Assembly (NCBI RefSeq): GCF_020085105.1
Contig: NC_058053.1
Coordinates: 24,541,196 to 24,605,195, forward strand
From: Siniperca chuatsi
Lineage: Eukaryota
Direction of reading: 5' to 3'
Length of the DNA: 64,000 nucleotides
Part shown: positions 1 to 57,868 of the stretch, piece by piece
Layout: every line of letters begins with the position of its first letter
Position numbering within the stretch: position 1 is the first letter of the stretch
Position numbers and translations under genes: made by a program
Notes under the pieces: model-generated
The model's input: only the letters and a program-made list of their open reading frames with translations
The model's database searches: none
Told to the model about the DNA's origin: nothing

Positions 1-1377
1 CTTTGGAACACATGATTATATATATTATCATCACATAATTGTAATCATCCCTAGAGCATTTTGTGTTGACATAATAGATTTAAAGTGGTTTAAACTAACG
101 CACATTTTTGATCTTACTTTATAAATCTGTTCATACAGTTTTACAGTCCTTCTTGAATTTAAAATCCATATAGGACCTCATTCCTTTCTCTTTCACTGAA
201 TCAGAGAAAATGTGTCAGCTCAGCAGGGCTTCAGCAGTGAGGAATCATAAATGGAAGATATTTTATGGTCCAAATGTACAGTATATCTGCAGATTCAAAA
301 CAAGACCATTAGTGAACCTTGCAGTTATTCTTTCTCTCCATATCATAACTAGGAGGGATATGGAAATGTGTGCTCCCCCATCAGCCACACTTGCAGTTAT
401 CAAAAATATAATAAACAGACGGAAAACCATAGCAAGCCTGATGAGAAAGAATTAGGAGTTAAACATGTAAGGAATCATGCCCAACTAGGCTCCACTGCTC
501 TGTGTAGATGAAAGCACAAGATTTTCTAAGTCAGATCAATAACTGAACGGATTACTTCAGGGTCGTCTAACACAGTTTAAAAAGCACATTTACTGGAACG
601 CTAAAGCTACAGAGCACAATAGATGATCTGGCAAAGAGCTGAGGGAAAGGAGCTGGTATATATACTGAGTGATTAATGAGAGAATGAGGGGCAGGTGCGC
701 GGGTGGGTGTGGGGATCATGTGACTGGAGATGGTGGGAATACATGGAGGGCAACTACTGAGGTGGAGAAAGGCAATCTCTGCAATGACAGGAGAGGTTTT
801 TGACAGCTGGCATGAGAAATGGACAGAATGTGTAAAACGAGTAAATCTGAGGTTGACGCTTTTTTGGAAACTATAATCAGAAAACATTGAATGTAATGGT
901 TGCCATGTTGCCATGGACTGTTCATGATGTTTTGAGGTTGTTTGAGATTTTCCTTATGGTAGAAATGGTACCCAGTAGTGTTTTTTTTAATTTCTATTCT
1001 ATTTTTAACATATATTGTTCTTGCTATTATGTTTTAAGTTTACTTGTGCCCCCTCAAATAAAGGTGGTGTATCATACTGAGACGCTATCAGTAATTTTCA
1101 TTACTTCATGATTTGCCTACCTTACAGTAACACCTGAAGTTTTACTGGGAATCCACACTTAGTTCCACAATTGTAAAAATCAGAGACAGCAGAATTCTCA
1201 AAAAAATATTTTAACTATCACATTAAGACCACATTTACATTGATATTCACATCCGTATGTCTAATACAGACACACTAGATGCTAACAAGCTAACTCATAA
1301 GCACATCACATATTATTTCAGTATTAATATTATAATGTTATAAAGGAAAGTGAGAAGAAGGAGGGGTTTCAGAGGGA

Positions 1378-1500
1378 GGACAAGACAGGTGGTGGTCATG
1401 GTTTGGGTTAAAATAAGTACTTATATAAGGACAGGGGACCTTTGTCATCATGGTTACAATAATAAATGTGGCTAAGATTAGGGAACGATCATTCTGATGG
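1378..1500. repeat. Interspersed repeat fragment (family B) with degenerate TTAGGG-like subunits (ggtttgggttaaaa ... aagattagggaacg)
   Basis: Shares the ggtta(g/a)gg / gattagggaacg motif blocks with copies at 33290-33500, 57440-57520, 59740-59935 and with the internal part of MITE family A. Confidence 0.45.
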
Positions 1501-3160
1501 TTGGAAACACCAAACAGACAGTGGTCTCCTCTGTTAAAGTCTGGTGTTTTTTTTACCCATCCATCCACCGCGATCTCCCATGGACGTATTATAAGAACTC
1601 AAAGATGACACCCATTCACCAAAAAAGGCTTGCGGCCCACTGCTCATGCACATTGGTGTTTCTCCCACTGGACCCTCCCACGTGTTCCCACTCGGCCCAT
1701 AGACTTTACATTGGGATGACATCAAGCAAAAGAAAAATAGGCTCTGAGAAAGTTTAACAAATATTAAACCTAAATGGATTCAATATCCATAATACAAAGA
1801 GTCCTGTAAACAGTTTTACAAATGTTTACAAATGGTGGTCTATGGAGAAATAGATTCTTGGGCTGCAGGGGATTTTGTGTTGCAATACCACGAGTGTCCA
1901 CTGGGATCAATTGGCAGCAAGACTGAGTGGTCACGCCTTAATACATCTAGGCTATGCAACCACTTCCCTACAGGAACTTTGTCGCTCTATAATAACGTCG
2001 CCTTACTTCCTATTTTTCTCTCGCCATAAATACCATGGCCGCTAGAGGACGTTGTTAATTGAACATAAACTTGTCTTGGGAGGACCGTCTCAATTACTTT
2101 TATCCAGCCAAATGACTGAGCATAATGAAACTGACAAGCAGACAGAATGACAGGATAATGTAAGTGAACCAAACATGATTAGCAAGTTGGATTTACTTTC
2201 ACACATTCAAACATGAACCCAGAGCAGGATTTTCTTGTCTCTCTGCGGGGGTATGGTGGTTGGCCACTAATGCTTTACTAATTCCTCCCCATTTTCTCCA
2301 AGCCAAAGAGTGTAGATGGGAGGTCAGACCAGCTTACTGTCTTCCTTTGTCCTTTCCCTCTTAAACCCCAGTTTCTTCTTTCCATCAGCACTGTCTGCAC
2401 GTTCCAACTGAAAAGGTTAAACTAAATCTGAATCAAATTTAAAATGGATGCCATTTAAAATATTTCCCTTCTATGCATTTGATGATTCTTATACATAAAA
2501 ATATGTTTGGATCATTTAATACATTTTCTGTCTGAGTGCCCAATACTTTGCTGGGGATTGTTATAGTTGAGGCAGGTTCATGTTAATCATTCATAGCAAT
2601 TTGGTCTTTCACTGCATGCACATTTTACATAATGAACTTGACTCATTCTCTTGCGTAATTTGTGCACATCAGCAGTAAATGTTATACATTTAAAAAAAAT
2701 GTTCATCCGACTTTTAAGATAATTGACTAACTAATAATTGAATACATTTTAATTGACATTATCATTAACTTGCCAGCTAGAATGCTAAGTCCCTGCTATG
2801 TCCAGTGTGTAAGGAGACTTTGGGGTCAACCTGGCTTCTTAAAGTGACAAACACACACAGATCTGTACGCCAACTGCAACACAAATAGGTATTGTGCAAT
2901 TTACAGTTCAAGCAAAGGCATCTTTATCAGGTCAATGCAAAAAAGTTGATGTCAAAATTGAAAGCTGTTAAACTGGAAGCAAAATTTCTTTAAACATATG
3001 AATACAAATACTCTTTTGCTCTTTGACTCTACTGTATAACTTAAGTCTATAACCTCATGTTCTACATTAATATACAAATATTGAATCAACATAACCTCAT
3101 TATATTTTCTCTTGAGCAGAGTCTCAGCAATTAATTTAATCAATGCACTGACATAAGCAT

Positions 3161-3659
3161 AATAATAATAATACAACTTTATTTATAGAGCACTTATAAA
3201 AACGTACCAAGTGCTTCACAAAGAGAGAAATAAAATACCACAGTGAATGATAAAAAATAAAATACATAAAAACAATAAAATAAACAGACAGCTCAGGTAA
3301 AATGAGGATATGCTTTCCGATAAAAATGTGTTTTGAAAAGAAGACACTGACTTAGACAACCTAATTTCTTTGGGCAAGTTGTTCCAGAGCCTCGGGGCCC
3401 TGATAGCAAAAGCTCTGTCCCCCTTAGTTTTCTACCTGGACTCAGGAACAGACAGGAGACCCCTGCCTGAAGATCTCAAACTACGTGAAGGTTCATGAGG
3501 GATGAAAAGGTCTAAAATATAGCCTGGAGCCAGGCCAAGGAGAGCTTTAAAAGTAATCAATAAGATCTCAAAATCAATCCTAAAACAAACAGGGAGCCAA
3601 TGTAAAGAGGCTAAAACAGGAGTGATGTGATCGTACCTCTTGGTCCAGGTTAACCATCA
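3161..3659 (-). mobile_element. L2/CR1-type LINE, 3'-terminal fragment (ORF2 C-terminus + 3'UTR), 5'-truncated
   Basis: Near-identical to the 3' end of the LINE at 43722-45720 (aataataa..ctttatttatagagcacttat...ggccccgaggctctggaacaacttgcccaaagaaattaggttgtctgagtc, here in reverse complement); ends in a (TAA)n-like tail. Confidence 0.8.
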
Positions 3660-4821
3660 TACAGTATATGATCGTAATGACTTGAGACTGCCAAAGAAAG
3701 ACAAGGAATGTATCATGTGATCATACATTTTTTTACTTTAATGAATAGTTAATTTGCTCTATCACCAAAAAAGTACAATATCAAGTTAACATGTCTTACC
3801 ATGTTCTTGCTATGTCACAAGACCCATTTTTCTGTCACTACTTTTCATGAATGTAGCTAGGTAGCTAGTTAGCTATATAGAAAGATGACATCACCATTCT
3901 CAACCCCACCTACAAAGCTCTGGTTGGTTTGGGGAAACAGACAAGCACAACACCAGATCTTTGAAGTAGTTAGAAAATTGAACAAGTAGCATATTGTGAG
4001 TCCATTCACATTGTGCTAGTGAATTTCTCTTCATTCATATGCACCCTTAAATGTCTCACTGGAATTATTCATAATCATTCTTTAATATCTGTGTGATTAA
4101 TGGGACATACTTTGAACGACTTAGGTATCTTGGAAACTGGTGTTAAGAAAGGTCCTAACTGTGACTCTCAATGATGCAATACTGTGACATCGTACATGTA
4201 GTGCTGTGCCACAGGGCTCAGCATGCCTTCCACTACCCCTCCTCCTACACTCACTCACAATACAGAACTGCACACATAGCTTTAAATATCTAACAACATA
4301 TTGTAGAGGGCAGCTTCTTTAACCAGTTAAGATGAATATCAACTAGTGCACATCACATTAATGCCATAAAAGCCGATAAAAGGAATGGCTTTTAGATGCA
4401 TTTTGAATTTTGAGTACTCCATCTCTGCCCCCTCCATGACATTTACAAACGCCAAAGTGTTTGAGTAGTCCTAATGTGTTTATCTTTGTGTTTCATCCCT
4501 CCAGGTAATGGAAAAGGACAAACCATTGGCACTGATATCAGAGGAGGGGGTCGAGCAAGGTTTCCTTAATAAGGTAACTGACATAATGAATTCAATTCAA
4601 GTTTATTTATATAGCGCCAATTCATAACAGAAGTTGTCTCATTGCACTTTTCCTATAGAGCAGGTCTAGGCCGTACTCTTTATAATATTATTTACAGAGA
4701 CCAAACAAATCCCACCATGAGCAACCATTTGGAGACAGTAGCAATAAAAAACTTCTTTTAAAAGGCAGAAACCTTGGACAGAACCACACTCAATGGTGGG
4801 CGCTGCTGTGTTAGGTTTTGC

Positions 4822-4856
4822 GAGAGAGAGACAGAGAGAAAGAGAGAGAGAGAGAG
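4822..4856. repeat. (GA)n imperfect microsatellite
   Basis: Direct reading: gagagagagacagagagaaagagagagagagagag. Confidence 0.95.
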
Positions 4857-6918
4857 GGGTTTTGGGGGAGGGGGAGAGGGAAGAACAATGCAAATACCAC
4901 CTAGAATAAAAAAAAAGTAGAATTGTAATTGTAGTGCTAATATTAATAAATTAATAATAATAGGAATGACAGCGATAGGAAAAATAATGCCACTATTAGT
5001 AAAAGAGCCAATAACAACAACTGTAGTAGCAGTTGTCGAGCAGGAACACGGGGGCAGCAGGTAGCCCATAAGCAGAAGCAACACTTTCAGATGATCTGCA
5101 GTTCCTAAAGTCCCGGCCATGTTCGTGCGGAGCTGCTCCCCTGCAGCTGGGCATTCCCTGCTCAGTTTGCTTCCCTCATAGAAGGTACTAGCAAATGGAG
5201 GAGTGGGCATCGACCGCCTGGATGTACCGTTTATCACCAGTCGAGACTGTTGAGAGCAAGGTTAAATGTTAAGTGAGCCCCAATCCCAAATTGCATGGGG
5301 CTATGTCCATGTACAAATTTCCAGAACTAAGACCTGCTAAACCTTTTTCTTGAGACAAATTGTGAGTGAGAGCAAATCATTACGTTATCATCAAATTGTT
5401 AACAAAAGACTCAGCAAGATGCATTCAGATTTTGAGGTAGACTAATGTGGCATCAGTCATGAAAACATTCAGTTTAAAATGTTGAACTATTCACTAAATG
5501 ATGGATAGGTTATGGTGATTCTTTAATTCACAGATGGAACGCACATTAAAAAATTGAAAGGACTTAAATTTCACAGTCATTTATAAATTGGTCATTGAAC
5601 AAAGAAAATGTTCACAATGACAGTGTTAACATGCTGATGTTTAGCAGGTTGATTTAAAATAGGCCTATGTAAAAAGTAAGACATAACAGAGTAACATTAG
5701 AATGAAAAGAACACATACACAATTAAAGAAAAAACTAAATAAATAACTAGGTACCACCAGGTAGTCAAGAAAAGTGCCCCAACATGTTTGAAACAGTTTT
5801 ATGTGTTTTTATGTTTAAACCAAAACACCTAAACCAAAGTATTGGACAAATTGAAATTTTGACCCGATGATGGCGCATACAAAGTCAGGGGATCACCAAA
5901 GTTATTCCAATTTATCTTCACTTCATAGTGAAGCCTAAGGAAAAGCCAGGGTATCACCAAAATCTCGGAACCATGAATGTCTGTACAAAATCTTCAACAG
6001 TTGCTGAAATATAAACCAAAGAGGTGAACGGGCCAACTGACAGACCAACATAGCCATCCTTAGAACCATGTAGCTAAGATTTGTTTGATTATTGTATTGG
6101 CACACTACAGCCTCCATATACAGTACACACCTGAGGACAGAAGCAGTGATTAATGTGTTAGCATTACAGAACCTTGCACCAACAGTACAGGTTTTTATAA
6201 CACATAATGGGGGTCTGTAAATAAATAAAACAATAAAATGTTTATTCAAGACTTTTTAGTCCTTTTTCCTCATAGGTCATCACATAGCTGGGGACCCTAA
6301 CGCCACCCAAATATCACAAAATCTGATGGGAGTGGAAGTCACAGGATCCACTCTGAGAATCCTTGGAATGGGTGTTTTGAATGTCCATTTCTCAGTGGAT
6401 GCTTACATAAATAAAACATCCTGATGATGTGTGTGGTTGCTTGAATTGACTTCCTCTGGGATGCCTCTAGTCTCACAACCAAAATAGTTGTGTTCAAGAT
6501 AACATTCAAAATAATGCTGTGCATATGTATAAAAAATAACACTTAAGGACGTTCTTAAAATGAACAGGGCTAACAGTCTATCTGCATTACATTTAGATTT
6601 ATCCATGCATAGAAATGTGCAGACAAAAACAGGCATGATCTCTGAAACTACCTGTTATGCTATCTGTAAAATTACTGAAGGGTGTTTTCACCAGAAAAAT
6701 AAAGAAATTGGAAGCCTTATCTCGGACTTATGACTTCCATATCTCATAATCATAAGGAAAGATTATAAGAACCTAGCCTGGATCTGTCCAAAGGTTAAAG
6801 AAAATCCATCTACCAGCATCTCTAAAGCTCGCTAATAAACACGTTAAATCTCGTTTGTTCAATCCGTACAAAAACCTAAGTGACTGTTTCTGCTCTTGTT
6901 TGCTTTAATGCTGTGCAG

Positions 6919-7045
6919 GAGTGGTGAAGATGAGAAGGCAGTGGGAGTGAGTTACTGTGAGAGCCTGGATGACCTGCTAAAGAGGTCAGACTTTGTCCTG
7001 CTGACACCTGACACAACAGGGCTCATGAAATCCACAGCAACCTGA
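6919..7045 (+). pseudogene. Exon-like segment resembling the D-isomer-specific 2-hydroxyacid dehydrogenase family (closest by recollection to GRHPR), with a 3-residue gap and an in-frame stop; probable relic/pseudo-exon
   Basis: Preceded by a polypyrimidine acceptor (ctgtgcag|). It translates to SGEDEKAVGVSYCESLDDLLKRSDFVLLTPDTTGLMKSTAT*. This aligns with the GRHPR segment [44 protein letters not shown] (recalled from memory). The ACS triplet is absent and a TGA falls at 7043-7045. Confidence 0.4.
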
Positions 7046-7712
7046 ACCTTTACCAAGGTCTCATCTCAGAATCACTTTATTGTAAAAGTGCAACAAATGT
7101 TACTTTAACTGTAAAAAAAACACATCAATTGACAGAAAAACATAGTATGTACAGGCACGAGGCATTCAGGGATCTCACTAATTTAAAATGCGATACAGTT
7201 GTTTTCAGCTTGGGGTCAGAAGCCAGTTATGTACTTCTGTTAGACACTATGGTACATGTATATGCTAAACTGCTTTAACCATTTTACTTTAGAGGACTTC
7301 ACATAATCCATGTTGCGTTTAAGTCTCTCTTTGGCTATGTACCATAGAATTTATGGATATAAAACAAGTGAGACTTGATGAGATGATTTTACAACTATAA
7401 AAGATTAAATGCTTTTATCTTTTCACACATTTGTATTCACTATGTTTCAAAGTCATCACTCTTCTGTAAACATAACATATTACAGTAATATGAACTCCAT
7501 ATTTTGTTACAACTGATATGAAACAATGTTAAAGTGTCTTTTATTTTGGACTGGATGATAATAACTGAAGAAAAAGAAAATGAGGCCAAGCATGAAAGTT
7601 CATTCTTGACCATGAAAATAGTAGTTTGACAAAACACTCTAACCTTGAGGTACAATTATTAGCTTTGAAATTAGTATTAGAATTAATTTACAGAACAATA
7701 AACCAATGTAGT

Positions 7713-8298
7713 GTAACCCTGTCTCCTAGAAATTGAATTTATACGTATATTACTAAATTATTTTCCCAATTACATTTTACTGACAAACTTTATTGCTGCT
7801 TGGATTGTGTTATGTTTTGAGTAAATGCACAGTCTGTGGTTGGGTTTAGGCTGCAAAAGCACTTTGGTTAAGGTTGGGAAAAGATTGTGGTTTTGGTTAA
7901 ACGTTAATAGACACGCTGTGTCTCAAGTCACTGCAGACATTTTCTGTATTAAACCAAGACCATGATCTTTCCCTAACCTTACCCAAACGCTGCCATGTGC
8001 CTAAACATAAGCATGACAAGTTGAATAATGCTTTAGTCACTGAGTGTGTATTGTATTGCAATGTCGGCTATTTTGGCAAAAAAACAAATAAAATATGTTG
8101 TCAGTGAACACATTAGTGATACGTTCAGTATCAACGTTATTGCGACTTGCCATATGGGTTAATTAACAACATTTCCTCATTATGTCAATAGAGAACATAA
8201 TCCGGCCTGCATTATGTTTCCTTCAAAACATGTTTGCTGTTGCAAATTAATTGTACATAAATGAAATTTCTAGGAGACAGGATTGCAACATGATACAT
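7713..8298. mobile_element. MITE-like non-autonomous DNA element (family A), full-length copy with 21-bp terminal inverted repeats GTAACCCTGTCTCCTAGAAAT / ATTTCTAGGAGACAGGATTGCAAC
   Basis: The TIRs are read directly at 7713-7733 and 8275-8298. No coding capacity. The internal sequence recurs at 9072-9490, 38390-38914 and 50746-51225. Confidence 0.6.
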
Positions 8299-9071
8299 AC
8301 AAAATAAACAAAAAACAAGTTGCAAAATGTACAGCATGAATAAATGCAGCTATGACTATTTTCTGGAGCTTCCAACCGCACCATATGCATCAAACTTCCT
8401 CTGCTGATGAAGACTATGTGATATGGCGAAAAGCTCCAGAAAAAAAGCTAGTGGTAAGTGGTGTTTGTTTGGCCAAACAATTTCGCTGTCATCTCAATGC
8501 AAATACTCTGCCTTTCAACAACAAAGTAATTTGTTGGAAAGGTTACAGCACATACAGTAACTTGCCAAGTTTCAATCCCTGTCATATCTCATTAGTTAAT
8601 AACAAACTGAGCCTAACATTCCTCCCCCTGCCACCTCTTTATGCCACAGGGGGAATATGGCACTCAGTTTCTACCTGAAACAGAAGTGTTGAACCTCAAG
8701 CTCGGGTTAAAAAGGTGAGTCTTTGACGTAAAACTAACTAAACAAACTTAAATGTAATTTCATAATAAGAGAAAGAACTATGTAATTTGGTGTTATCTGC
8801 TAAATCATTTTTCCACAATCATCAACTTGCAAGATCCTTGATGAAGATCCATGAATGGTTGTTGGGCCGACAATGTTAATGTTACTGAAACGCATTCTTA
8901 AGAATCCAATACCAAAATATTCTTTTTATATACTTGTTATAGACCTAAGTCTGTGAAGCAGGAAAAGAAACACTACAGTTTTCCTTCTGCTTAAAATGAG
9001 TACAGTGCAAACACAAAGTATGTGTTACCACATTGATCATAAATGAGCGCAATGTGACACAGCTGCATCCA

Positions 9072-9490
9072 GTTATCCCTGTCTCTTAGAAATAACTTCT
9101 ATATTCTACTAATTTGCAAGAGCAAATATGTTTGTAAAGGAAGGTAATGCTGCCCGGATTAAGCTTTTGATCAACAAGAGGAAACTTTTATAATAAATGT
9201 ATCTGCCAAGTTGCAAAATGTTGATACTGAAAGTATCTGCAAACTTTCACTGACAACACGTTTCACTGTTTTTCACTACAATGTCCACTCTTGCAATACA
9301 ATATCTGCTCGTAGCAACTAAAGCATGATTTTGTTATGTTTAGGCACTCACAGCACTTGGTTAATGTCAGGGAAAAGAATGTGTTTTTGGTTAAATATTG
9401 AAAAAGCCCACAGTGACATGAAGCATGAGACAAGATGTGTTTACTATATTAACATTTAACTAGTACACTTTTTCCCTAACCTTACAGTGT
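9072..9490. mobile_element. MITE family A copy, left TIR present (gttatccctgtctcttagaaat), right end truncated
   Basis: The left TIR and the internal block (gttatgtttaggcactcacagcacttggttaatgtcagggaaaag ... ccctaacctta) match copies A1 and A3. Confidence 0.5.
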
Positions 9491-9829
9491 TTCCCACATT
9501 ATGACAGTGAATCTGTATATATAAATATTTGAAAGAATATATTAATACATTACCCTATTTCTAGCAGGTTATTTCTTATTTCACTATTTTAATTCTCCTT
9601 AATTCTCATTCTTATTTCAGCAGACTGTCCTCACCAGAAAAATGTCTATATAGGCTGTTTTGTGCAAGCAGCTTATTACGACCCATGTTTACGTTTATTG
9701 TAGGATGATAGTTATGACAGGAGCAAACCAGGAAGTCAGGTGACGTAGTATAAAGAACTAAAAAGTCTGCTTATGGAAGTGATGTGATGGAATGGATGGA
9801 CGGCACAAACAAATGGGGGGCTTTCAGCC

Positions 9830-10110
9830 AGAAGACCGGGGTTCGTTTCCCGTTCTAAAACCAAAAGTCAGCGTTGACTTATTTATGGTTTTAAGTTACA
9901 TAACGTCACGTATGTGACTTACGTACTTACATTAGTTACAAGACATACGTGACTTACGGAACATACTTAACTTACGTTAGTTGTGTAACTTACGTAACAT
10001 ACTTATTTTAACCAAAACCATCATCTTTTCCTAGGCCTAACCAAGTAGTTTTTTTTTTGCCTAAGCCTAACCAAACTGCGACAGTTTCACAACGTTAACC
10101 ATGTGTTTAA
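9830..10110. repeat. Family-B-type repeat containing an ACGT-core palindromic motif cluster (acttacgt units) and cctaaccaa(g/a) blocks
   Basis: Reiterated units: acgtcacgtatgtgacttacgtacttac ... gacttacgg ... aacttacgttag ... aacttacgtaac. Flanking cctaggcctaaccaag / cctaagcctaaccaaac resemble the CCCTAACC blocks of family A. Confidence 0.4.
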
Positions 10111-10950
10111 CGTTGACTTATGTATTCTCACCTTACAGCCCGTCCTCAACTGCCACGGTAGGGCCGCTAATTTAGGAAACGCTTCTGTGGGTCGTATTAG
10201 AGGGTAGGAACCAACGACCTATGTGGTCGTATGGGTTGGAGGACTTGTTATATTTTAGAGTTTACTCACAAACTACTTTAATCTGCTCACCTTGCTTTTC
10301 CTTTCAGTTTTCAATAGCTTGGCCTCCAGTATTGCTGCTTTCTCGAGAACCGCTAATCCAAACTACTTAACACTCGACACTGCACTTCCTTGGGTCCTCA
10401 GCAATACGAATGTGAAGTCGATCAGCAACGGTTGTCGAGAAAATCGAAGGACAGACATACAGACAGACAGACAGAGGCTCCTTCCATTTTAGTTAGATGT
10501 GGGACTCAGGATGTGTGCGCCCAAATGAGGCTCTTGAGGCCATGTGTGTGAGTGAATGTAGCAATGGTAAGGCTGCCACTCACTCTCTATCTATGATTGT
10601 ATTTTAAAAAGGGCACGCTGTCTAGAAATGAAGGGCACCCTTTCAGCAGGCAGCCCACACAGGCCTCCCTGAAGCCCACAGAGCGCCTGACTCCGGCTGG
10701 CCTTTTCCCTCAAGGCTACTCCTATAAACTGTGAAGGTGATCCTGATGGTGAGAGCTACATTAGTCCAACACTGATGTGACCTCACTGAAAGTGTCCTTG
10801 AGATCTTTTGATTGTCCAACACCTCCTTAGTTTAATTTACTCGACAGTCTTTTCCATTTACGCATTAAATCACTATAAGGCTTTGCTCATATAGGCATAT
10901 TTGCACCTGAACATGGTGGATGGTGTTATAAATTATGTTTGTATTCCATA

Positions 10951-11045
10951 GCCCTATTCAGACAGGATTAACATGAGGGGAATAAAAAATTCTCTGTGCT
11001 CCTCTGTAATTTAACTCATTGTTCAGGACGGCATTTTAACCACTG
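10951..11045 (+). repeat. Short dispersed element, copy 1 (gccctattcagacaggattaacat ... gtaatttaactcattgtt ... ggcattttaacc)
   Basis: Shares three conserved blocks, in the same order and orientation, with 61604-61700. Confidence 0.35.
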
Positions 11046-12842
11046 CGAAATGTGGTCTGTAACAGACTTGGACATTCTGCAGGACTAGCCAAAAGAGAAT
11101 ACCTGTACCTGACATTATGACAGCACACTGGATGAGCTTTTACAGGGTCTGGCTCTGCTGATGGCATTTTTCCATCTTCACATTGGTTCCCAAATAGGCC
11201 TAAATGTTGTGCTGGTGGTGTTAACATGTTTCCGTCCATCATTAGCAAAAACATTTTTCATTTCCTCCATTTTCACACAAAAGTAAAATTTTACACTGAA
11301 AACAATAAAAAAAATTAAATAAAAGGACAAGAGCTCTTCACACAGAAAAAACTCAGAGATTCGCTTTAAAATACAAGGATGTCGCTCTGGATGATAATTT
11401 AAATTATAGGAGGACCAGCGAGATCACTGAAAAACAGCAGGTAATTGCGGCTGTAATTATTATTGGGGTGTGGGTGAAGAATTATCTGCATACACCCTCT
11501 GGACCGAATTAAAATCACTGGTAATGTTAAAATCACCCCATTACCCCTAGAGAAATAAATCCAGCCTTAATGGGGCTTTAGTTCAAGTATTGTTTCCAGG
11601 TTTTCTGGAATCTCCAATTCCCCATTCGTTGCAGTCTTGTAACAGCTGATTTATTAAATATATTACATTATGGCTCTATATTTCACAAGAGTCTGACTTA
11701 GTGGGAGGGTCTTATTTAAGTGTCACAGCAACAGCTTCAGCTTAGTTTATTTTTTCACCTTTCTGACCATTTACAAGGCCTGCCAGTTTTAACACTCTAA
11801 TTATTCCAGATCCTACGCATCCTGTTTGTCTTCAGCTCCTTTACCTTCCATTACTCACCTGATCAGTGCACACCTGCCTCTCATTCCCCCTAATCAGTCA
11901 CTCCCTATATATAGCTGCCCTCTAGCCTTAAGGCCCAGTCACACCAGAAAGTGGCACAGTGAAATTTATCTGGGTATCTTTGCAAACTATGTGCTTCTAG
12001 AAGCCTGGTGACATAGTGACTACACACAGGGCTAGTTGGTAGGCTAATGAATCTGGTGAGCTAACAACTAAAATGGTAGCCAGCCAGGAACCTGCTAGCG
12101 CTTGTCTTTTACAATGGTAAATGCCAGTGGGACCTCACAATGTATTCAAGAGACGTATTTGTACCATCATCTCTTCTCTCATAACTGCCTTGCCTCTTTT
12201 GTGGAACAGTTTATAAGTTAAATGCTTCTCCTGATTTGGACTCTCTGGCTTTCTGTTGCCTCAGAGTCCAGCAATGTCAAAACAATTTGCTATTGGTCAA
12301 ATTTGGGTGTCACCAAAGCTTACCAAAGTTGAACTCAGTGTGAAAGATTCATGCAAATTTATTTTGCCCCTGCAAGAAAATCCACTGATCAGGGCGATTC
12401 CATTATAATGAATTGATTTTGCAGGAAAAAATGCTGGTGTGACCGTCTATTGTGCGTCCTAGCCTCAGTGGTCCCGCCCTTGTTCTGACTCTTCTGTTAA
12501 AATATTCCTAAATACCAATGCGCAGTTAAAACAGTCCTTTTTTCAATTAATAGGATATAAAATTCCTCATGTCACATTGTGGGGAAACTTTTTCTGTGGT
12601 TGGAGACTATCTAAACATGGCGGTTGCAAAAATGTTGATCAGGTTTGATGAGTTGCTCCTGTAATGGCAACTTGATCACTTCTGTCAATATATAGATTTT
12701 GGCACGATTACATCCTTCTCACATTAGAGTCAGTTGAATCTGTGTTAATATCCAAAATGTGGATTAATGCAAGGCATTTCTCTTGCTCTCTTTTTTTTGG
12801 TACAAATCAACTGAAACATATTTGGTGCAAATAAGTAGACAT

Positions 12843-12876
12843 CATGCTGGTATGTATGTGTGTGTGTGCTTGTGTG
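12843..12876. repeat. (TG)n imperfect microsatellite
   Basis: Direct reading. Confidence 0.9.
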
Positions 12877-15581
12877 TGTGTGAGTGAGAAGGTGGGTGGA
12901 TAAGTGGGAGGATAGTGTGTGAAGAAAAGCTTAATGAACTGTGCTTCAAGTGTGACTCAGTGCGCAGTGTCCTTCACACATGAAATTAACATAATTTTAA
13001 CTTTTATCTGTGAAAAAGGATGAAAATAATAAGAACCTACACATCAGAAATATTGAAATCTGGTGGGAATTGAAGCGCTCTCGGTGAGTCACGTATAGGA
13101 ACTGCCTGAACCAAAAACAGACATCAATCCCTCTCTTCCTGTTTTCTCTCAGGCTCCACTAGATGCTTTTATTTGTTCATGGCTTTGTCAGTGGCCCATC
13201 CTCATGTTCCACTTCTATTTTTGCATGTTCAACTACAGTAGATGAAAGCATATCAAGATTTTTTTTTTTGCATCAAAGCTCAAGTTCTTCGGCAAGAGAA
13301 CTTTTTTGTGAAAACAGCCAACTCTGTATTATTATCCAAATGAGGAGGAGGAATATGCCATTCTTTATTAAAGCATGAGAGCACACAAGAAAGTACAATT
13401 AGTGGAAATTTGCCTTTGAATTTTTTTTAATGAAAAAGCTAGAAGCCTTGTCTCATTTGCACAAGGATACTGAAAATACTTGTTTTAAAAATGGGACTCA
13501 AAAAGAAAAAAATAGATATAACCTCATGTTTAGACTATTGTGTTCACACCCAAACTCCAACTGTCATCTGTTATAAATGTAAAAACAGAACAGACCTGAA
13601 TTTTAAAAGATGTTAACACTGTATTAGCTGAACATGCTTTTCTGAAGTGCTGTGCAAAGTAGCTCAGCTCTGCTCTTGACACTTTTTCTCCTCAGAAGTG
13701 AGAGAATAATCACTGCCAATTTTCACAAAGAATAAAAAATGCCTGGCTTTAATTATAATATAAAATCCAGGCTATTAGGACTACATTTTTCAGGTCTCCT
13801 GGTAATTTTAATTAACACTTTTTTGAAACTATTAACAGTGTGGATGAATGTAAGAGGGCTGTTATTTATGTCACTCCCAAGGGAATTGGTGAGCTTTAAG
13901 GGAATTAATCATGAAGTTGACAGAGCTGGTGAGGCAAAAAAGTGCAAAGATGACAAGTTTTCTATTTTCAACTGCAAGCATAATACAGTTACAACATTAA
14001 AATAACAAAAGCAGAGTCCAGGTGTAGACAGCAGATCCTGGTAAATGATACGATTCAGCACCAGCCTCTTGAACGTCTTCATGTCGGATGTCTGAAAGCC
14101 CCTTCTGGGCAGGCCTTCATCCATGTTGACTAAAAGTTTGTCAACCTTTATATAAATTTTGTAACATACATATTTCAAGCATCCTATTGCCTTCATTCAG
14201 GAGTAGCAAACCAAACTGCAATCTGTTCCTGTCTTTCACTGAACCCTGCTATGTTTTCTTTGAGCATCTCCTTGCACACCTTATTGTTTTGATTTACTTT
14301 TACGTCCTTAGTGGCATGGTTTTTTTTTTTCCGTGACGGAGGTGTCTCCCTGCTTTGTAGAGTTACACCAAGATGCAGTTAGATGTAGTGAGTAAGACCT
14401 TCAGTGTGTCCTCACAGCTGTCAGCTACAGCATGTGCTGACACCAGAATCATACAAAGACCCTCACTGCTACCACAGAGCTCATGCACTGTAGACACCAT
14501 CCAGACACATAAGCAAAGATTATGTAGTAAATTATAACTTTCACATCAGCACAGTATTTTCATTTCAAGGGGATTTTAAGGTCAAACAGTTAAGGCTATA
14601 TTTTTAGCTTTAGCTTCATCTGTTTGTTAAACCTTTAAAAGCAGGTGTGTGTTTTAAAAAGGGGTGTGTTGCCACAGATCACCACGAGAATACTGAGGGT
14701 TGGTCTGTGAGGAGCCGACGAGTCTCCAGGCAAATGACATTACAGTCACCCCCCTCTCCTCTCCTCTCACCACCCTGCCTCATGTTTCTGTCAGCTCAGA
14801 TTGTGTAGGAGCCCATCAGTGTTGTGTCTGAGAGGAGAGTCCAAGGAGTCAGACACCTCTTGTTATCTTGGGGACTGAACTTGAGAGAGGAGCGGCTGTC
14901 AGAATTCGTTGACAGAGTGCATGAGGCCGCTAAGGTCAGTCTGAGTGGGTAGGGGTTTCTTTTGTCCAAAATCACTTTATAAAGAATGAGGCAGAAGTGC
15001 CCCTGCTTTTGCCCCAGCCACTCAGTCCATTTATTATCATTTATCCTGTTATTATAATTATTATTATTATACAGTATTTTATTGTCCAAGGACAACCTCC
15101 ACCTGCCAACCCAAACTCCTGAGGCTCAGCAGAAATGTCTTCTTGTAAGGATGAGTACTTAAAGATTGATGAAAGAAATTCTGAATTACAGAATTTAATT
15201 AATTATCAAGTTACAGAAGCTAGTGGAACAGAGGCCAGCCCAGACATGACGTCATGGGATATCTTAGCTCCGTTGTGTCTAATTTATTTTGATACGGTTT
15301 ACTAATATTGGGACTTATTTTACTTTGCTAATTGGTGAAGTGCACTGATATATTAAGTTATTGTAATTAATTTCAAACAGGTCTATGTTTTAATAATCAT
15401 TTCAAATTAGTATGGCACAATATTGTTTGTAAATCCAAACTAAACTGTCAGTAAAACATTCTTTTTATTTATGATGTTGTCTGGGGTCATTTATTGGTTG
15501 TGATACTTTCACTTAAAACAGGTAAACCTTGGTGGTAGCATGTGGGTGTGTGAATGTGCATAGGTGTGCAGGTTTGTGTGT

Positions 15582-15583
<2 letters not shown>

Positions 15584-15672
<89 letters not shown>
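15584..15672. repeat. (GA)n microsatellite, ~44 units, immediately 5' of the LINE
   Basis: Direct reading. Both strands give the artefactual ORFs 15487-15798, 15509-15721 and 15529-15714 (SLSL.../RERE...). Confidence 0.98.
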
Positions 15673-16935: not shown

Positions 16936-18650
16936 ATTCTGATTTCCCCCGTTCATAAGAGTGGGGACAAATCAGACCCTGGTAACTACCATGGCAACTG
17001 TGTCAGCAGTTGTCTAGGTAAACTATTCTGTAGTATTCTAAATACAAGAATACTAGATTTCCTTGAAGAACACTCCATCTTGAATAAAAATGAAATTGGC
17101 TTCCTCTCAAAACCACCGACCACGTATACACCCTTCACACTTTAATTTACAAACATGTACACCAAACAAAAAATGGTAAGATATTTGCTTGTTTTATTGA
17201 CTTCAAGAAAGCTTTTGACTCTATTTGGCATGAAGAGCTCTATTACAGACTTTTACATGGTGGTATTAAATCAATGTATTTGGAAAATAGATGTACTGTA
17301 ACAATTGGAGACAAACAAACTGAATCCTTCACCCAGAGAAGAGGTGTTCGTCAGGGCTGCAACTGAAGCCCGACTTTATTTAATGTGCAATGTAATATAA
17401 ATTAACTTGCTGTACAGTTGGATCAGTGTGCTGCTCCTGACCTCTCCCTCTTAGATAGAGAGGTGAAGTCGCTGATGACCTTGTTCTATTTTCTCCTATT
17501 GAACAAGGACTATAGCAACAGCTGGACATAGTAGAAAAGTGCTGTCAGAACTGGGCCCTGGCAGTAACTATGAAGAAAACTAATGTCATGTCACGTTTAC
17601 CATTAATAATCATATCATTGAACACAGTATGAGTTATACCTACCTTGGTATAACCATAACAGCATCAGGGAGTTTCAACATGGCAGTGAATGCACTAAAA
17701 GAAAAAGCTTGAAGAGCTCTGAATGCAATTAAGAGAAAATTTTGTAATTTTCAAATTCCAATTGAAATTTGGCTTAAAATATTTGATAGTGTCATCCAGC
17801 CCATTGCGCTGTATGGTAGTGCAGTACAGGGTCCACGCAGTCATCATAGCTATATCTGTTGGGACAAACATCCAAGAGAATTGTTACATGCAGAATTCTG
17901 CAGATACATTTTACACAGAAAAACACCAATATGTGCATGTAGAGCAGAATAGGCAGATACCCACTGATAATTAACATTCAAAGAGTGCGCTCAAATGTTT
18001 TAATCCCCTTAAATCCAGCCCCCTAGACACCCTCCATTCCAAAGCCCTCCAAACCCAAAAGCTGAGCCCAGAAAAGAGTCCCCTATGTCAGTTGGTGCTG
18101 AGACTAACTGCCCCCCTCAGACACACTCTGACCAGTCTCACAACAGCTCTGCTTAACAAACACCAATCAGAGTAAACCAAATTATAATGCAATGTAAAGA
18201 AAACTATTAGGAACATTGGAAAGAAGAAACTAAAAGCCAAAGTAGCTCAGAATATTATCTGGCCCTAAAAAGAGATTATGAATTGGCAGAATGTCTCTCT
18301 ACTATCAGAGATAGAAAGCAGAGACAGATCCTGACCAAGTGCAGCCTCGGTGACCACAAACTGACAGTCGAAAAAGGAAGACACAAAAAATCCTGGCAAC
18401 CAAAAGAAAACAGAACATGTGGTCAGTGTTCGATAGCTGAGGTTGAGACAGAGATGCACTTCCTCCTACAGTGTACAACATTCGATGAAATAAGGAATGT
18501 TTACTGTAACAAGTTCAACTCTGTAATCTCAGATTTCAAAGAGCTAAATGATCTCTCAAAATTAAAAATACTCCTAGGAGAAGGAGACAGGGCATATCTT
18601 GCTGCACAATATGTATCAACATGCCACAACCTGAAGGACAGTGAATGACC

Positions 18651-18906: not shown

Positions 18907-18912
<6 letters not shown>

Positions 18913-18959
<47 letters not shown>
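18913..18959. repeat. (GA)n microsatellite immediately 3' of the LINE
   Basis: Direct reading; artefactual ORF 18873-19070. Confidence 0.98.
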
Positions 18960-18962
<3 letters not shown>

Positions 18963-21900
18963 CATGTAACAAACAGACTCACTGTATAGACAAATGGTCA
19001 AACTAAGGCTTGATTTAATAGTCAAACGAGTTGCTTGAGGAGCATTCGTTAAAGTGCAGACGATGTGCATCTATTAAGGCTTTTCTTGTAACAGATTAGA
19101 TTAGATATATAGGCCTGTCACAATTATTACCTGATTATTTCAGCTGACTGCGATCATTTTGCATAATCTTTAGTTTCTACAATCAAGGGATGTGTTGCAG
19201 TTGAATATTATTTATTATTATTTACATTTTGATGTTGAGTCATATTTGCTTCTTTCCTTAATAACATTTAATCCAGATTTACTCTGAATAATTACAATTA
19301 TATTTGATTTGCTTGTTGCCTGTAATGCAAAATAAAGAAATACACGCATGTCCCTTCAGCGGCTTCCGACACTTAACGACACTTTGGGGCAGTGAGTAGC
19401 TGCAGGTGCACAGTGGAGCTGCTCAACTTTCCGACCGTGTTGTGGAAAAACATGGAATTAAAGAGCTCTGCTGTCTAGACCTTACTGCTATTGGACAGCT
19501 TCTTTTGTTTCAGCTATGAAACCATATTTCTTGCTTTCCGAAGCAAGATGATGACAGAGAGGTGCCAATAACGGGTCTCTTTATAGCGGAGAGTCCCCCC
19601 CTTGAGTGCAGCAGTGCGTTTGACAGCTCTGGGGAAAGTTATGCTGGAGATCATTTACAGGCAGACCTTTGCTGCTTAATGTCAGTATATTCATTTTGAG
19701 TGATATTTTGGTTTTTGATATAAGTTTTGTCAAATTTTATTGCTTCCATCCAGCTTTTCTAATGAGATAATTTGCATAAAAAACATGCAAACATGGCTTT
19801 GTGTTTCCCCGTTGCATATTAACTTTTGAAAATAAAAAAGAAGCATCCTTCTACATTAGTTAACTGTCTTGAACCACTTTTTCATTACATTAGGTAGGCC
19901 TACACAACATGTTCAGAACAAGCTATTTAAAATAACTGCAGCAGAGCAAGAGGTGAAACCTTGTTTCAGAACACGCATGTGCTCTTTGAAGATTAACTGA
20001 CACTAGTTTGCCAACTACCGCATAATTTCGACATTGGCATAAAATTATCAGAAAAAGACAATTAAATCATTAATCACAATTATTTACAATTAATCGTCAT
20101 GACAGCCCTATAGGGGGGCTGTCCTTCTGTCACAGAAGAGTTGTCTGTCAATGTACAATTTGTCAACGGAGATTACAGCTTTTCTTCTTTTTCTTGAGGA
20201 ACTGTTTTCTTCTTGGCAAAATCATTTTGCATCTTCTATCAGTATTTCCTGAGGGAAGGGGTCATAAATGCAAAAGATGGTTCATCTCAGGTCCTTCCTT
20301 TGGGTATAACCAGCTCACTGTGTTTAAAGTGTTAACATTTGATAATAATTGGTGTCTGATGTTTTGTATTTGTGTTGAACCTGATGGAATGGGATTTTAT
20401 CGATTGGCATCTTAAATGCGATTTTTTTATCTGTTCCTGGCTAAACTCCAAACTCTGTTCAATAGCTTAAAAAGTGAAATCCTTGTATCGAGAGCCAAGA
20501 GTTTCTGGCCTACTTGATATCAGAGTGTCACTAACCTCAGGGCAGAAGCCTCTGTCTGGGTGGTGTACAGTTTTATTCCTTCTTGCACAGTGAAAACACC
20601 AGCCGAGATACTGTTTGATTGTCAGTGGTAAACAGGAAGATTTATGTCCTTGGCTATTTGCAGAAGGGTGCCCCAATGTTGATTCTTGCCCAAGGGCCAC
20701 GATGTCATTAATCTGATCACATATTACGAAAAACCCCTGTTTACAGCAGTAGTAATATTTGCTACTTTTCAGTTCATTTTTTCGGTACATCAAGTGGCAA
20801 TGTCATGCTTTGTCTGCTTTAAACTAAATGTATTCCTTATCAGCACGTGCCACTAGGGTTCACTGTGTTGAATGAGGCTTCCAGTAATGGTTCTTTTTGT
20901 TATGCAATTGGCTGGAAAGTGTTGCTGCTTCAGAAACCCTCACTTGAATGTCAGTAGTCAAGAATGGCCATGAGCTGCCCTCTATTCGGGGTCTGATTAC
21001 TAATGTGAAAGCGTAAATCTTCATAAACTGGTCTCAAATATGTTAGTTTTATGTTTTAAAGAGATGAAATCACTTCCTAAAATAGATGGGCACTGTAATC
21101 TTGTAGCAAACATCACTCTAAGGAGTGATCGAGGAGTAAATTGTGCATTTTTGGGGGGGACAATTTTCAAATGCAGATTAATACACATTTGGTGCTCTAG
21201 TGACTATTTACCTCAGCAGGATGGTGCATGTGGGTACAACTCAAATAAATCGAAAGTGCACATGTTCACAGTAAAGAAGGGATATCGCACCCAGTGCAAC
21301 CGTGTGGCTCATTTATGTCTTTTATAGTTTTTGGACAACAATGGAGCTTTATGACACAGAGGAATAAGATATTTTTTTGCCACAAAGACAATACTTGGTA
21401 GTAAAATCAATAACTGGTTGTGGTCTTTTCATGAGATTTGTTGACAGTAAGAAAAATATCACTATACTACACTGTTCTTAATTCTCTCCAGTCATGAGTA
21501 ATTATATTGCAAAGTATTTAATTATAGATGAACATTTATTATTCTTGGGATTCATCACTGAAACCGACCAGCAGTTTTTACCCTTGTAAGTGTCAAGTGT
21601 ACTTTCTGATGCTACATTTTCATTAGTGCAAAATGTCAACACTTCTGAAAGTTAACTTGACCAGGAGGCTTTTGGGAACATTTTGCTCATATTGTGGGGC
21701 TCTCTGTGGAATATTAGGGTGGCTTTTTCCACATGAAGGTGGTGCATTTCAAGTAAAAATATTTCAGTCAGTTCAGCAGTGAGAGCGATGACTTCTAGAC
21801 CTCATGTGTATTTTAGAGAATAGGCAAATTTACATTGTGGAGGTTAACAGAGGGAGGGCACTGTGCCAGTCCCTCTGAATGTGCCAGCAGGGCTACAATT

Positions 21901-23110: not shown

Positions 23111-23924
23111 TTTACCCAGAAATAATCTGTAGGTACTCTTTCACTGTTTTTTTTAAAATTAGTGATTTGTTAATTTAATTTTTCTGTGACCAGTTTACTG
23201 CTAACAAGCTACTGAGGCTAATGTGTTACTAATACAACATTCTCGCTAACTGTTAAATTACTGTTGAGCTATTGTTACTTTTTTCCCCACTTTTACTCTT
23301 GTGGACTCTACTGCATGTACTCCATATGTTTACATGTAGTAGCTACTTCCTGCGGGGACTTTGTTTCCTCCTGGCACGAGGAACAGCCAATTAATTTTTA
23401 CAGTGTGTTTGGTCGAGCTTTTGTTTATGGTATCTCATCTTTTTCTGATTTGTAATCAGTATCATTGAATTTGTTGTTTTATCCAACAACGATGACAATG
23501 TTTCCCTAACCTTATCTAAGTGTTTTAATTGCCTAATCACACCCAAACCTTTATTTACCATCTTTGCATAACTTTAACCAGAAGACGCACATTTTAAAAA
23601 CATTGGATATAAAAAAAACCAACAACAACACTGAACATAATCTGGGATTTGGCAGAAATTAGAAATATTGAGGCTCTTGTCTGGCAATGACCACAAGATC
23701 AGGTCAAATGCAGCAGCCACCTTAAATATAAATATTGTACTTAAGTGGTGCAAATTCCCGAACAAATTGGCAATTAGCAAAGTATTAAAACAAACTGACA
23801 TGCAGTGAACCTGGGGCTTTTTGGGGCCCTTGGGCAGTTGCCAGCTTCGGGCAGTTGGTAATTCAGCCCTCCCTGTAGTACTACTTCTACCACTGCTGCA
23901 GCCACTGCACTGCTAATATCAGTA

Positions 23925-43721: not shown

Positions 43722-45720
43722 GTATATAATAATAATATAATAATAATAAAACTTTATTTATAGAGCACTTATCAAAACAAAGTACAAAGTGCTTCACAAC
43801 AAGAGAAATAAAATACCACAGTGAATGATGAAATATAAAGAAATAAAATACATAAAATACACAAAAGCAATAAAATAAACAGCCAGTTCAGGTCAAATCA
43901 GGATATGCTTGGCAATAAAAATGTTTTTTGAGAAGAGACTTAAACAAAGACACTGACTCAGACAACCTAATTTCTTTGGGCAAGTTGTTCCAGAGCCTCG
44001 GGGCCATGATAGCAAAAGCTCTGTCCCCCTTAGTTTTCATCCAGGACTCAGGAACAGATAGGAGACCCCTGCCCGAAGATCTCAAACTACGTGAAGGTTC
44101 ATAAGGGATTAAAAGGTCTAAAATATAGTCTGGAGCCAGGCCATGAAGGGCCTTAAAAGTAATCAACAAGCTCTTAAAATGAATCCTCAAACCAACAGGG
44201 AGCCAATGTAAAGAGGCTAAAACAGGAGTTATGTGGTCGTACTTCTTGGTCCAGGTTAACAGCCGAGCAGCTGGGTTTTGTACAGTCTGCAGTCGTGTCA
44301 AAGTTTTTTGATTAAGACAAGTGAACAGGCTGTTACAATAATCAAGGCGTGAGGAGATAAAAGCATGTACATGCAGTTTCTGCATCACTAAGATTTAAAA
44401 TAGATGGGATTTTTTCAATGTTTCTGAGGTGATAAAAACACGATTGGACAAGCTTAGTGATGTTGCGCAAAACATAAATTGTTATCAAACAGGACACCAA
44501 GATTTCTTGCAACAGGCTTGATATGTTGTGACAGGTTACCAGTAGATGGCAGTGTTTGTTTAGTGATGTGTTGGGGCCCAATAACAAGGATTTCAGTTTT
44601 ATTTGAGTTGAGCTGAAGAAAATTTATCGACATCCAATTTTTTATGTCAGACAGGCAGTCCTGCAGAGAACTCAGCGTACTAAGGTCAGTGGGCTTGACA
44701 GGGAGGTACAACTGTGTGTCATACGCATAACAATGAAAAGAAATACCATGTCTGCGGATTACATCACCCAAAGGAAGCATGTAAAAGGAGAACAGTATTG
44801 GTCCCAGAATTGAACCTTGAGGCACACCGTACTTGATATGGGAAAAGGATCACATGAAGTTATTAATGCTGACACAGAATTTCCTATTGGACAGATAAGA
44901 TGAGAACCAGTCTAGTGCAGTGCCAGATATGCCCACCCAGTGCCTCAGTCTATCTAAAAGAATGCCATGCTCAATTGTGTCAAAGGCAGCACTTAAGTCC
45001 AATAGCACAAGAATTGAACACATGCCTGCATCTGCATTCATTAAAAGGTCATTGGTGACTTTGAGAAGGGCTGTCTCAGTGCTGTGGTGTTGACGAAAGC
45101 CAGATTGGAACTTTTCAAAGGTATTATTGTTTTCCACAGCAGCAAGAAGCTGCTTAGATACAAGTTTTTCGAGAATCTTCCAAATAAAAGGCAATTTGGA
45201 GATTGGGCGATAGTTATCCAAGAGGGTGGGATCAAGCCCAGGTTTTTTTAGGACTGGCTGGACACAAGCTGTTTTAAAGTAATCAGGGACGCAGCCAGTA
45301 GACAGTGAGCTGTTCAAAAAATAATTTGTAAAAGGGGCGCAATACAATCTATAACTTCCAATAAAAACCTAGTTGGGATTTTGTCCAGAGGACTGGCGGA
45401 TACTCTCATAAGCTACATGATGTCTGTGTGTTCAGGCAGCATAACAGCAGAAAAATTGCTCAAAGAATCCCCGAGCGGGTGATCCACATCTAAAAAGACA
45501 TGGTTGGGGGTGACATCAGATCTTATTAACTCCACCTTTCCAGCAAAGTGCAAAACAAACTTTTCACAGTCAGCATCACAATCAGCAGGGGCACAAGGAG
45601 AGGCAGGGTTAACTCACTGATCCACAGTCTTAAATAGGAATCTGGGGTTGTGCTGATGGGCAGAAGTAAGTGCAGAGAAATTACATATTCTTGCATCCTT
45701 CACCATCCTATTATAAAGGC
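43722..45720 (-). mobile_element. L2/CR1-type LINE, ~2 kb 5'-truncated copy (RT domain to 3'UTR) with frameshifts; master-like copy of the family seen at 3161, 22700, 57984 and 63360
   Basis: Minus-strand ORFs 44850-45347 (..NYRPISKLPF..FQSGFRQHHSTETALLKV..LLDLSAAFDTIEH..), 44454-44825 ([20 protein letters not shown]...[10 protein letters not shown]) and 43888-44388 (..NPAARLLTWTKKYDHITPVLASLHWLPV..). The 3'UTR ends in a (TAA)n tail at ~43722-43748. Confidence 0.88.
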
Positions 45721-54515: not shown

Positions 54516-54605
54516 GTAAGGATTTATTATTGTAATGTCTTGTCATACCATACAGTTGCATGCAACTGGAATAATTTGCTTAATGAATTTGCTTTTTTCT
54601 TAAAG

Positions 54606-57520: not shown

Positions 57521-57831
57521 CAGACTTGCAAGTCAGTCTTTGAATCTATTAGGAAGAATGGTCAGGTAACACATAGTTTTAATTTTATTTTCAAAGGAGA
57601 CATTTAGTACATGAAAAGGCAAACATTCAAATGATTGAATACCATTCAATACCATTCAATGCAAAGGGCTTTATTGGCATGAAAGAACAATGTTGAAAAA
57701 GCATCAAAATATAATTTGTCCAAATATTTGGACAGCACACAACAACAGTAATATGAACATTAACACAACATTAAGATCGATAATTATATATATATACAGT
57801 ATATCCTATGCAAGTATATCCTATGCATGTA

Positions 57832-57833
<2 letters not shown>

Positions 57834-57867
<34 letters not shown>
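57834..57867. repeat. (TG)n microsatellite
   Basis: Direct reading; artefactual ORF 57690-57905. Confidence 0.97.

Positions 57868-57868
<1 letters not shown>

Follow-up and report, generated by a model that had tools for sequence, protein, structure and literature searches.

A putative unprocessed pseudogene of a zgc:136493-type dehydrogenase gene behind a GRHPR-like exon in a teleost genome

Vertebrate unprocessed pseudogenes at ancestral loci have the same exon-intron layout as the parental gene, remain in synteny, and carry multiple lesions, some of which are common to related species. Among the D-2-hydroxyacid dehydrogenases, GRHPR (human structure 2GCG) contains the Pfam domains 2-Hacid_dh and 2-Hacid_dh_C together with an SDF..(x)..LTP.T.GL block, and the human gene has nine exons. 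The parent of the relic described here belongs to the same superfamily and fold family as GRHPR and has these domains and this block in common with it but is a different paralogue, from a separate vertebrate subfamily referred to as 'probable 2-ketogluconate reductase' or zgc:136493, and the decayed gene has five coding exons. A subfamily profile search recovered >100 members close to full length; teleosts, amphibians, a bird, and some mammals were represented, the mammalian members being patchy in the database matches (felids, a hyena, bats, suiforms such as pig and peccary, and a marsupial). In text searches of the literature zgc:136493 was named in no paper, with one table entry for the chicken gene, and the physiological role of this subfamily is essentially unstudied. 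An intact gene of this type is present in Enoplosus armatus, at a locus (L001) that we took from CM093906.1. Its product, P0189, has 327 aa and is encoded by five exons (by residue: exon 1, 1 to ~127; exon 2, ~127-184; exon 3, 184-244; exon 4, 244-276; exon 5, 276-327). A second tandem intact copy, also of 327 aa, lies 1.7 kb downstream, and Enoplosus has a further paralogue, P0182, on another chromosome.

We analysed a 64-kb stretch of DNA (hereafter the window), in which an earlier note had described positions 6919-7045 as an isolated exon-like relic of a GRHPR-like gene. With a probability of about 0.93, this segment would comprise the decayed exon 3 of an unprocessed pseudogene of a zgc:136493-type teleost gene, fused to the final 16 nt of its exon 4. 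The pseudogene would stand at the ancestral position of the gene, at about 2782-7260 on the + strand, with the parental intron positions retained. Compared with vertebrate unprocessed pseudogenes that follow lineage-specific loss, there is nothing unusual in the window relic, and the same is true of its relaxed dN/dS. This is ordinary gene loss, and the window adds one more example to a very common class of features. 'Unitary' status cannot be claimed for the whole family, the scope of our analysis being the 64-kb window of the genome.

Read directly from the window, the frame from 6920 gives SGEDEKAVGVSYCESLDDLLKRSDFVLLTPDTTGLMKSTAT and then a TGA at 7043-7045, and a pyrimidine-rich tract with an AG at 6917-6918 lies immediately 5' of base 6919. 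The translation, acceptor, and in-frame TGA reported in the earlier note were all accurate on rereading, and this AG is the base-for-base counterpart of the intron-2 acceptor in the intact Enoplosus gene. The resemblance to human GRHPR was a correct lead, although statistically it could not be distinguished from noise. Specifically, tblastn of GRHPR proteins gave only noise-level matches here (E >= 0.12): the human query (100% identical to 2GCG) reached E = 0.98 at the segment, and the best of 120 GRHPR orthologues reached E = 0.12, which is comparable to spurious window matches at 49845-50027 and 23225-23290. The GRHPR profile scored 3.3 bits on the segment (E = 7 among 2901 ORF fragments). 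With all 120 orthologues at noise level and such a profile score, the segment does not behave as an orthologue or recent duplicate of GRHPR proper. The 41-aa peptide scored 14.2 bits (E = 0.029) on Pfam 2-Hacid_dh_C, below the cut-off of 25.1 bits, and its best PDB match had E = 0.015; 13/13 listed matches were D-2-hydroxyacid dehydrogenases aligned at the same place. Since the GRHPR-based evidence alone was at noise level (tblastn E = 0.12-0.98), the finding could not by these means be told apart from a random ORF fragment that happens to resemble the SDF...LTP..T.GL block, and the Pfam value also favors such an accident in that the peptide was chosen after the fact from a 64-kb window. Several of the best weak matches in the GRHPR-profile scan clustered on the + strand at 5.2-7.1 kb, and their order fitted that of the protein, which suggested that more than one exon was present.

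Significant similarity was found with the other paralogue. An exhaustive HMMER scan of the 41-aa peptide against 1.84 billion representative proteins returned 22 matches at E <= 0.001 (best, E = 1.4e-7 with 80% identity), and the named members among these were 'Zgc:136493', 'probable 2-ketogluconate reductase', and similar. When subfamily proteins were searched back onto the window (tblastn), the segment matched at E = 2.3e-14 over 6917-7042 (P0121), and P0189 matched the exon 3 relic at E = 2.4e-13 with 65% identity. The similarity is therefore best, and significant, to the zgc:136493 subfamily (E = 2e-14 vs. E >= 0.12 for GRHPR); a 2-hydroxyacid dehydrogenase match was found as the earlier note had anticipated, but in this subfamily and not in GRHPR, which was not the parent. 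A chance resemblance is vanishingly improbable in view of this E value, of four more colinear exon relics that match the same proteins, and of the surrounding non-coding DNA, which aligns with the intact-gene locus of Enoplosus. The proof came only from the right paralogue together with synteny. Intact P0189 scores 202 bits on PF02826 and 69 bits on PF00389 and matches human GRHPR (2GCG) at E = 1e-49, whereas the concatenated relic scores 16.9 bits (PF02826; cut-off 25.1) and 16.7 bits (PF00389; cut-off 24.6). Because both relic scores fall below the gathering cut-offs, the family assignment rests on orthology and not on the profile; judged from sequence, membership of the zgc:136493 / 'probable 2-ketogluconate reductase' subfamily by descent is established through this orthology. 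For annotation, the locus is best labelled a pseudogene of 'probable 2-ketogluconate reductase'; labels such as GRHPR exon, orphan exon, or novel ORF would be wrong.

The segment is not isolated. Subfamily tblastn matches on the + strand fall at 2782-2894, 4508-4588, 5055-5099, 5104-5244, 6266-6373, 6917-7042, and 7041-7064 in colinear order, and they add four relics to the flagged one (an alternative 5' exon, exon 1, exon 2, and the exon-4 tail; Table 1). Across the whole 64 kb and both strands, the same search gave no other match at E < 0.08 and, up to its threshold of 0.1, a single one at E = 0.083 near 29.6 kb. Coordinates were taken from local blastn and short re-alignments, as global MAFFT misplaced segments across the large indels.

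Table 1. Features of the relic and of the neighboring deleted copy in the window.
Feature	Position	Strand	Details
Alternative 5' exon relic (N-terminal extension, long isoform)	2782..2894	+	P0165 residues 1-41, 70-73% identity
Exon 1 relic, first part	4508..4590	+	ATG retained; MEKDKPLALISEEGVEQGFLNKVTDIM, codons 1-27
Insertion of ~485 bp interrupting exon 1	4591..5075	+	(GA)n run, A-rich stretch
Exon 1 relic, second part	5076..5103	+	KQHFQMIC, codons 28-35
Exon 1 relic, third part	5104..5255	+	PKVPAMFVRSCSPAAGHSLLSLLPS, stop, KVLANGGVGIDRLDVPFITSR; codons 48-94
Exon-1 splice donor, GT to GC	5256..5257	+	L001 GAGA/GTACGG vs. window GAGA/GCAAGG
Exon 2 relic	6276..6371	+	Acceptor AG 6274-6275 retained; reads HHIAGDPNATQISQNLMGVEVTGSTLRILGMG
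Exon 3 relic (flagged segment)	6919..7041	+	Acceptor retained; matches protein residues 184-237
Exon 4, last 16 nt, and GT donor (7058-7059)	7042..7059	+	CTGAACCTTTACCAAG, encoding (P)EPLP(R)
Intron 4 start and deletion junction (about 7252-7262)	7060..7262	+	blastn, three-way alignment
Missing second tandem copy (Enoplosus L001 14115-15912)	8724..9077	.	Flanking blastn

The alternative 5' exon reads MLSPCYVQCVRRLWG...LLKVTNTHRSVRQLQHK followed by a stop. The frame of this exon shifts between 2826 and 2835, and a TAG abuts the GT donor; its counterpart in Enoplosus P0182 reads MRSLCYVQCVRRLWGSAQASRLLKVTNMHRSVRQLQHKK. Exon 1 is broken into three parts. The first matches P0189 residues 1-27 at 74% identity (tblastn, E = 7e-8), and window 4184-4590 aligns with L001 9694-10083 at 81.7% (blastn). 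The adjacent L001 bases 10083 and 10084 have window counterparts at 4590 and 5076, ~485 bp apart, and the intervening DNA looks like an interspersed repeat from its composition, with a GA run at 4822-4856. Its start motif, TTTATTTATATAGCGCCAATTCATAACA..., may resemble fish interspersed repeats, and the insertion may be bounded by a degenerate ~20-bp duplication. After KQHFQMIC, a net 32-nt frameshifting deletion at 5100-5103 (codons 36-47) places the two flanking tblastn matches in different frames, the upstream one (5055-5099) covering residues around 20-34 at about 53% identity with the best query. The third part matches P0189 residues 48-94 at 81% identity (tblastn, E = 4e-13) and L001 10142-10283 at 89.4% (blastn). 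It contains a TTG>TAG nonsense change at 5179-5181 (codon 73) and a second frameshifting deletion, of 86 nt, between 5243 and 5244 (codons 95-123), after which come the last 12 nt of exon 1. We also considered the 'ag' at 5180-5181 as an acceptor for an exon starting at 5182 and rejected it, as the homologues extend upstream and the 'tag' is the nonsense codon within exon 1.

Exon 2 matches P0189 residues 124-159 at 67% identity (tblastn, E = 5e-9, over 6266-6373) and ends at an 84-nt deletion between 6371 and 6372, with which codons 159-184, the last glycine of GxGxxG, and the exon-2 donor are gone. The reading of VLNVHFSVDAYINKTS after GMG (6372 onward) as a diverged FNMRILYHNRNRR was discarded; in the DNA alignment it is intron 2 following the deletion. 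For exon 3, the earlier note had reported a gap of three codons, and the gap is real but measures four codons against the orthologue (12 nt in frame, LAVN, codons 212-215, between 7000 and 7001). The divergence noted after GL was likewise seen, and its cause is a 24-nt in-frame deletion of ISHRELSL (codons 224-231), which lies between 7026 and 7027 and has a CTCAT direct repeat at its flanks; the following LMKSTAT still matches LMKPTAT. The in-frame TGA was created by a ~190-bp deletion that brought exon 3 up against the end of exon 4 in a different frame (...ACAGCAAC joined to CTGAACCTTTACCAAG/GT). Exon 3 lost its final 22 nt to this deletion and exon 4 lost 82 nt, and the whole of intron 3 went with them (codons 238-270 plus the intron); the coding loss of 104 nt is not divisible by 3, so that the exon-3 frame reaches the TGA at once. 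The surviving exon-4 tail reads PEPLPRSH against PEPLPRDH (7/8 residues; tblastn, 7041-7064), and window 7038-7090 aligns with L001 11918-11970 at 88.7% (blastn). Further downstream, window 7090-7250 is the counterpart of L001 11970-12095 and window 7259-7425 that of L001 12730-12914, and a ~600-635-bp deletion has taken away the remainder of intron 4, exon 5 in its entirety (codons 277-327, with the catalytic His), and downstream sequence. Two further candidate remnants of coding sequence were rejected as intron-4/junction sequence: TFTKVS after the TGA, taken as a diverged LVNISRG, and CNKCYFNCKK (7086-7142), taken as the CNKDFFQKMK of GRHPR, the real exon-4 remnant being PEPLPR in another frame.

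This list of lesions is read directly from the alignments, and we infer the order in which they arose. Inactivation would have taken place in situ, by ordinary mutational decay once selection was relaxed. The nonsense substitution and the repeat insertion in exon 1 would have contributed to it, as would several deletions, at least two of which (those of 12 and 24 nt in exon 3) are flanked by short repeats, and two of which removed splice donors; the loss of exon 5 would be part of the same process.

The orthologous position of the relic was observed directly. L001 7587-22377 is colinear with window 59-15194 (blastn; about 68-97% identity), and this alignment of ~15 kb takes in upstream DNA, introns 1, 2, and 4, and downstream DNA, with the exon 2 and exon 3 acceptors and the exon 4 donor aligned base for base. 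As introns and intergenic DNA align over such a length, the window represents the orthologous locus, and the comparison with a related species proposed in the earlier note led to an intact five-exon gene at this place in Enoplosus armatus. The relic is the positional orthologue of P0189 in this related percomorph, and P0189 is also the closest protein to it (115/153 alignable residues identical, 75%). The two genes have their intron positions in common, and their introns and flanks can be aligned. However, the Enoplosus gene is intact, whereas the window copy shows nonsense and frameshift changes, a repeat insertion, lost donors, and no exon 5. Parental introns, disabling lesions, and synteny with a functional orthologue, by which unprocessed pseudogenes are defined, are thus all found at this locus.

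A processed (retrotransposed) or dispersed duplicate pseudogene might be suspected, as exon 3 and the exon 4 tail are joined without intron 3, like a spliced copy at first sight. That junction, however, lies off the splice sites (exon 3 is short of 22 nt and exon 4 of 82 nt), introns 1, 2, and 4 are present and alignable with Enoplosus, and the flanks are syntenic over ~15 kb. A processed pseudogene would have no introns, a poly(A) tail, and a non-syntenic position, with which these three introns and the synteny disagree, and such an origin is exceedingly improbable compared with decay in place.

The Enoplosus locus also differs from the window in its second intact tandem copy, which the window lacks. 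L001 13876-13922 corresponds to window 8677-8724, and L001 16314-16678 to window 9077-9484 (blastn), while L001 13922-16314 is without window counterpart, with just 8724-9077 between the flanks; subfamily tblastn gave no family match in the window downstream of 7064. We infer that the tandem duplication predates the species split and that the window lineage deleted its second copy, so that the ancestor would have had two. Two observations can be added on the tandem genes themselves. The alternative 5' exon (L001 9190-9330 vs. window 2740-2930) is better kept in the dead copy than in Enoplosus copy 1, where it is mostly deleted, and this fits P0189 having only the short 327-aa form. Between the two Enoplosus copies (L001 11571-11938 vs. 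15245-15610), exon 3 has a dS of 0.24 and 93% nucleotide identity, against a dS of ~0.6 in exons 1-2, and this likeness of exon 3 suggests possible gene conversion.

With regard to coding capacity, the earlier note had offered as an alternative a real but divergent exon whose donor had been misplaced, that is, a functional exon of an intact gene with its donor elsewhere. Several features are compatible with this: the acceptor at 6917-6918 is intact, the 12- and 24-nt deletions keep the frame, and the ATG of exon 1 is retained. Nonetheless, exon 3 has lost its donor together with its final 22 nt. A nonsense codon and frameshifts are found elsewhere in the gene as well: exon 1 contains the 485-bp insertion, the codon-73 TAG, and two deletions that shift the frame, exon 2 is without its donor and the end of GxGxxG, and exon 5 is absent. 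In a word-indexed search of 5.8 billion proteins, none shared three 5-residue words with the 41-aa peptide, a null that reflects a limit of the index and not an absence of homologues, but from which it follows that no annotated product contains the peptide. A functional exon is accordingly extremely unlikely; a complete multi-exon intact gene, which the earlier note had named as evidence against a relic, is not what lies here, the gene being multi-exon yet broken.

As a functional D-2-hydroxyacid dehydrogenase, the relic fails on every count. P0189 has GMGGIG at residues 157-162, and the window has GMG and then the 84-nt deletion, which leaves a broken motif. The catalytic Arg, Glu, and His of human GRHPR (R245, E274, and H293) correspond to R243, E272, and H291 in P0189. 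Two of these three codons are deleted, Arg243 within the ~190-bp deletion and His291 with exon 5, and the Glu codon survives, although not in the reading frame (gaa, 7044-7046). An uninterrupted frame is precluded by the TAG at 5179-5181, the TGA at 7043-7045, and the frameshifting deletions of 32, 86, and ~190 nt. To all appearance the copy is dead and can no longer make the enzyme. What was borne out of the earlier description is therefore a non-functional relic of a D-2-hydroxyacid dehydrogenase gene paralogous to GRHPR, starting at a genuine splice acceptor.

To evaluate the mode of evolution, we compared the relic with its Enoplosus orthologue over 152 surviving codons and obtained 88.8% nucleotide identity, dN = 0.10, dS = 0.195, and dN/dS = 0.51, a pairwise value that mixes functional and non-functional time and comes from a small sample. 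The two intact Enoplosus copies have a dN/dS of 0.25. A second comparison came from another species, in which P0124, one of the protein matches, was called as an ORF on a 1.2-kb contig (L002; Logan SRR33468180) that is about 82% identical to the window and represents the same locus. Two lesions were observed directly in both: the 12-nt deletion in exon 3, and the exon-5 deletion, whose breakpoints agree to a few bases (to about 11 nt on one side). L002 has an additional private deletion, and each lineage has private deletions. Over the first 82 nt of exon 3, which is a small sample, the window and L002 are identical at 67/82 positions (81.7%), and the adjacent intron is 82.1% identical. A dN/dS of 0.51 vs. 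0.25, together with an exon identity equal to that of the intron, is what neutral or relaxed evolution would leave.

It could also be proposed, hypothetically, that the locus lost its coding capacity but was retained as a transcribed non-coding RNA or a regulatory element. Splice acceptors and one donor survive, and the upstream region and the alternative 5' exon are still recognisable, as such a role would have it. Exon 3, however, is no more conserved than the adjoining intron between the two pseudogene species (82% vs. 82%), and private deletions have accumulated in each lineage; both point to neutral decay, and we regard a retained non-coding role as very unlikely. The locus would have no present function. 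Because two lesions are common to the second species, the loss is old, and neutral decay is, by all indications, older than the divergence of the window species and the L002 species. The two internal deletions of exon 3 (12 and 24 nt) are both in frame; this could hint at a constrained period, although the chance expectation is 1/9 and one of them is common to L002.

An old loss of a tandem gene pair, common to two species and mapped in a little-studied dehydrogenase subfamily, is of modest value in itself. That the loss is more than incidental seems doubtful, even though it extends to at least two species at ~18% neutral divergence and both tandem copies are gone, one by decay and the other by clean deletion. 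If the remaining paralogue on the other chromosome were also gone or altered, a vertebrate enzyme whose substrate is unknown would have been lost specifically in this lineage, and such a loss, if true, could help define the role of the enzyme.

Several other features of the window are recorded here. Window 10497-10974 and 12265-15194 (L001 16709-17219 and 19499-22377) show 77-85% identity, above that of the pseudogene introns. The Enoplosus record has no gene called in either L001 interval, and the blocks may belong to an unannotated gene or be conserved non-coding elements. The ORF fragment at 49845-50027 (+) is the best GRHPR tblastn match of the window (34% identity over 65 aa, without GxGxxG); this match (E = 0.012, in 1/120 queries) was rejected as spurious, as no member of the true subfamily matches there. 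The earlier note had placed the relic in repeat-rich DNA, and surroundings with transposon fragments are confirmed by RVT_1 and DDE_3 ORFs in the window. Transposon ORF fragments lie at 44853-45368 (-), 17094-17363 (+), and 54604-54903 (+); two of them match reverse transcriptase (RVT_1; E = 2e-15 and 4e-9), and one resembles a DDE_3 transposase (E = 2e-4, below cut-off). Intron 1 contains an insertion of ~700 bp relative to Enoplosus, at about 5330-6037, and the window has repeat copies, 92-97% similar to one another, at 3336-3635, 43942-44241, and 57974-58127. A perfect (AG)44 microsatellite occupies 15584-15672, and besides the GA run within the exon 1 insertion, shorter GA and GT runs occur at 18909-18980 and 57812-57873.
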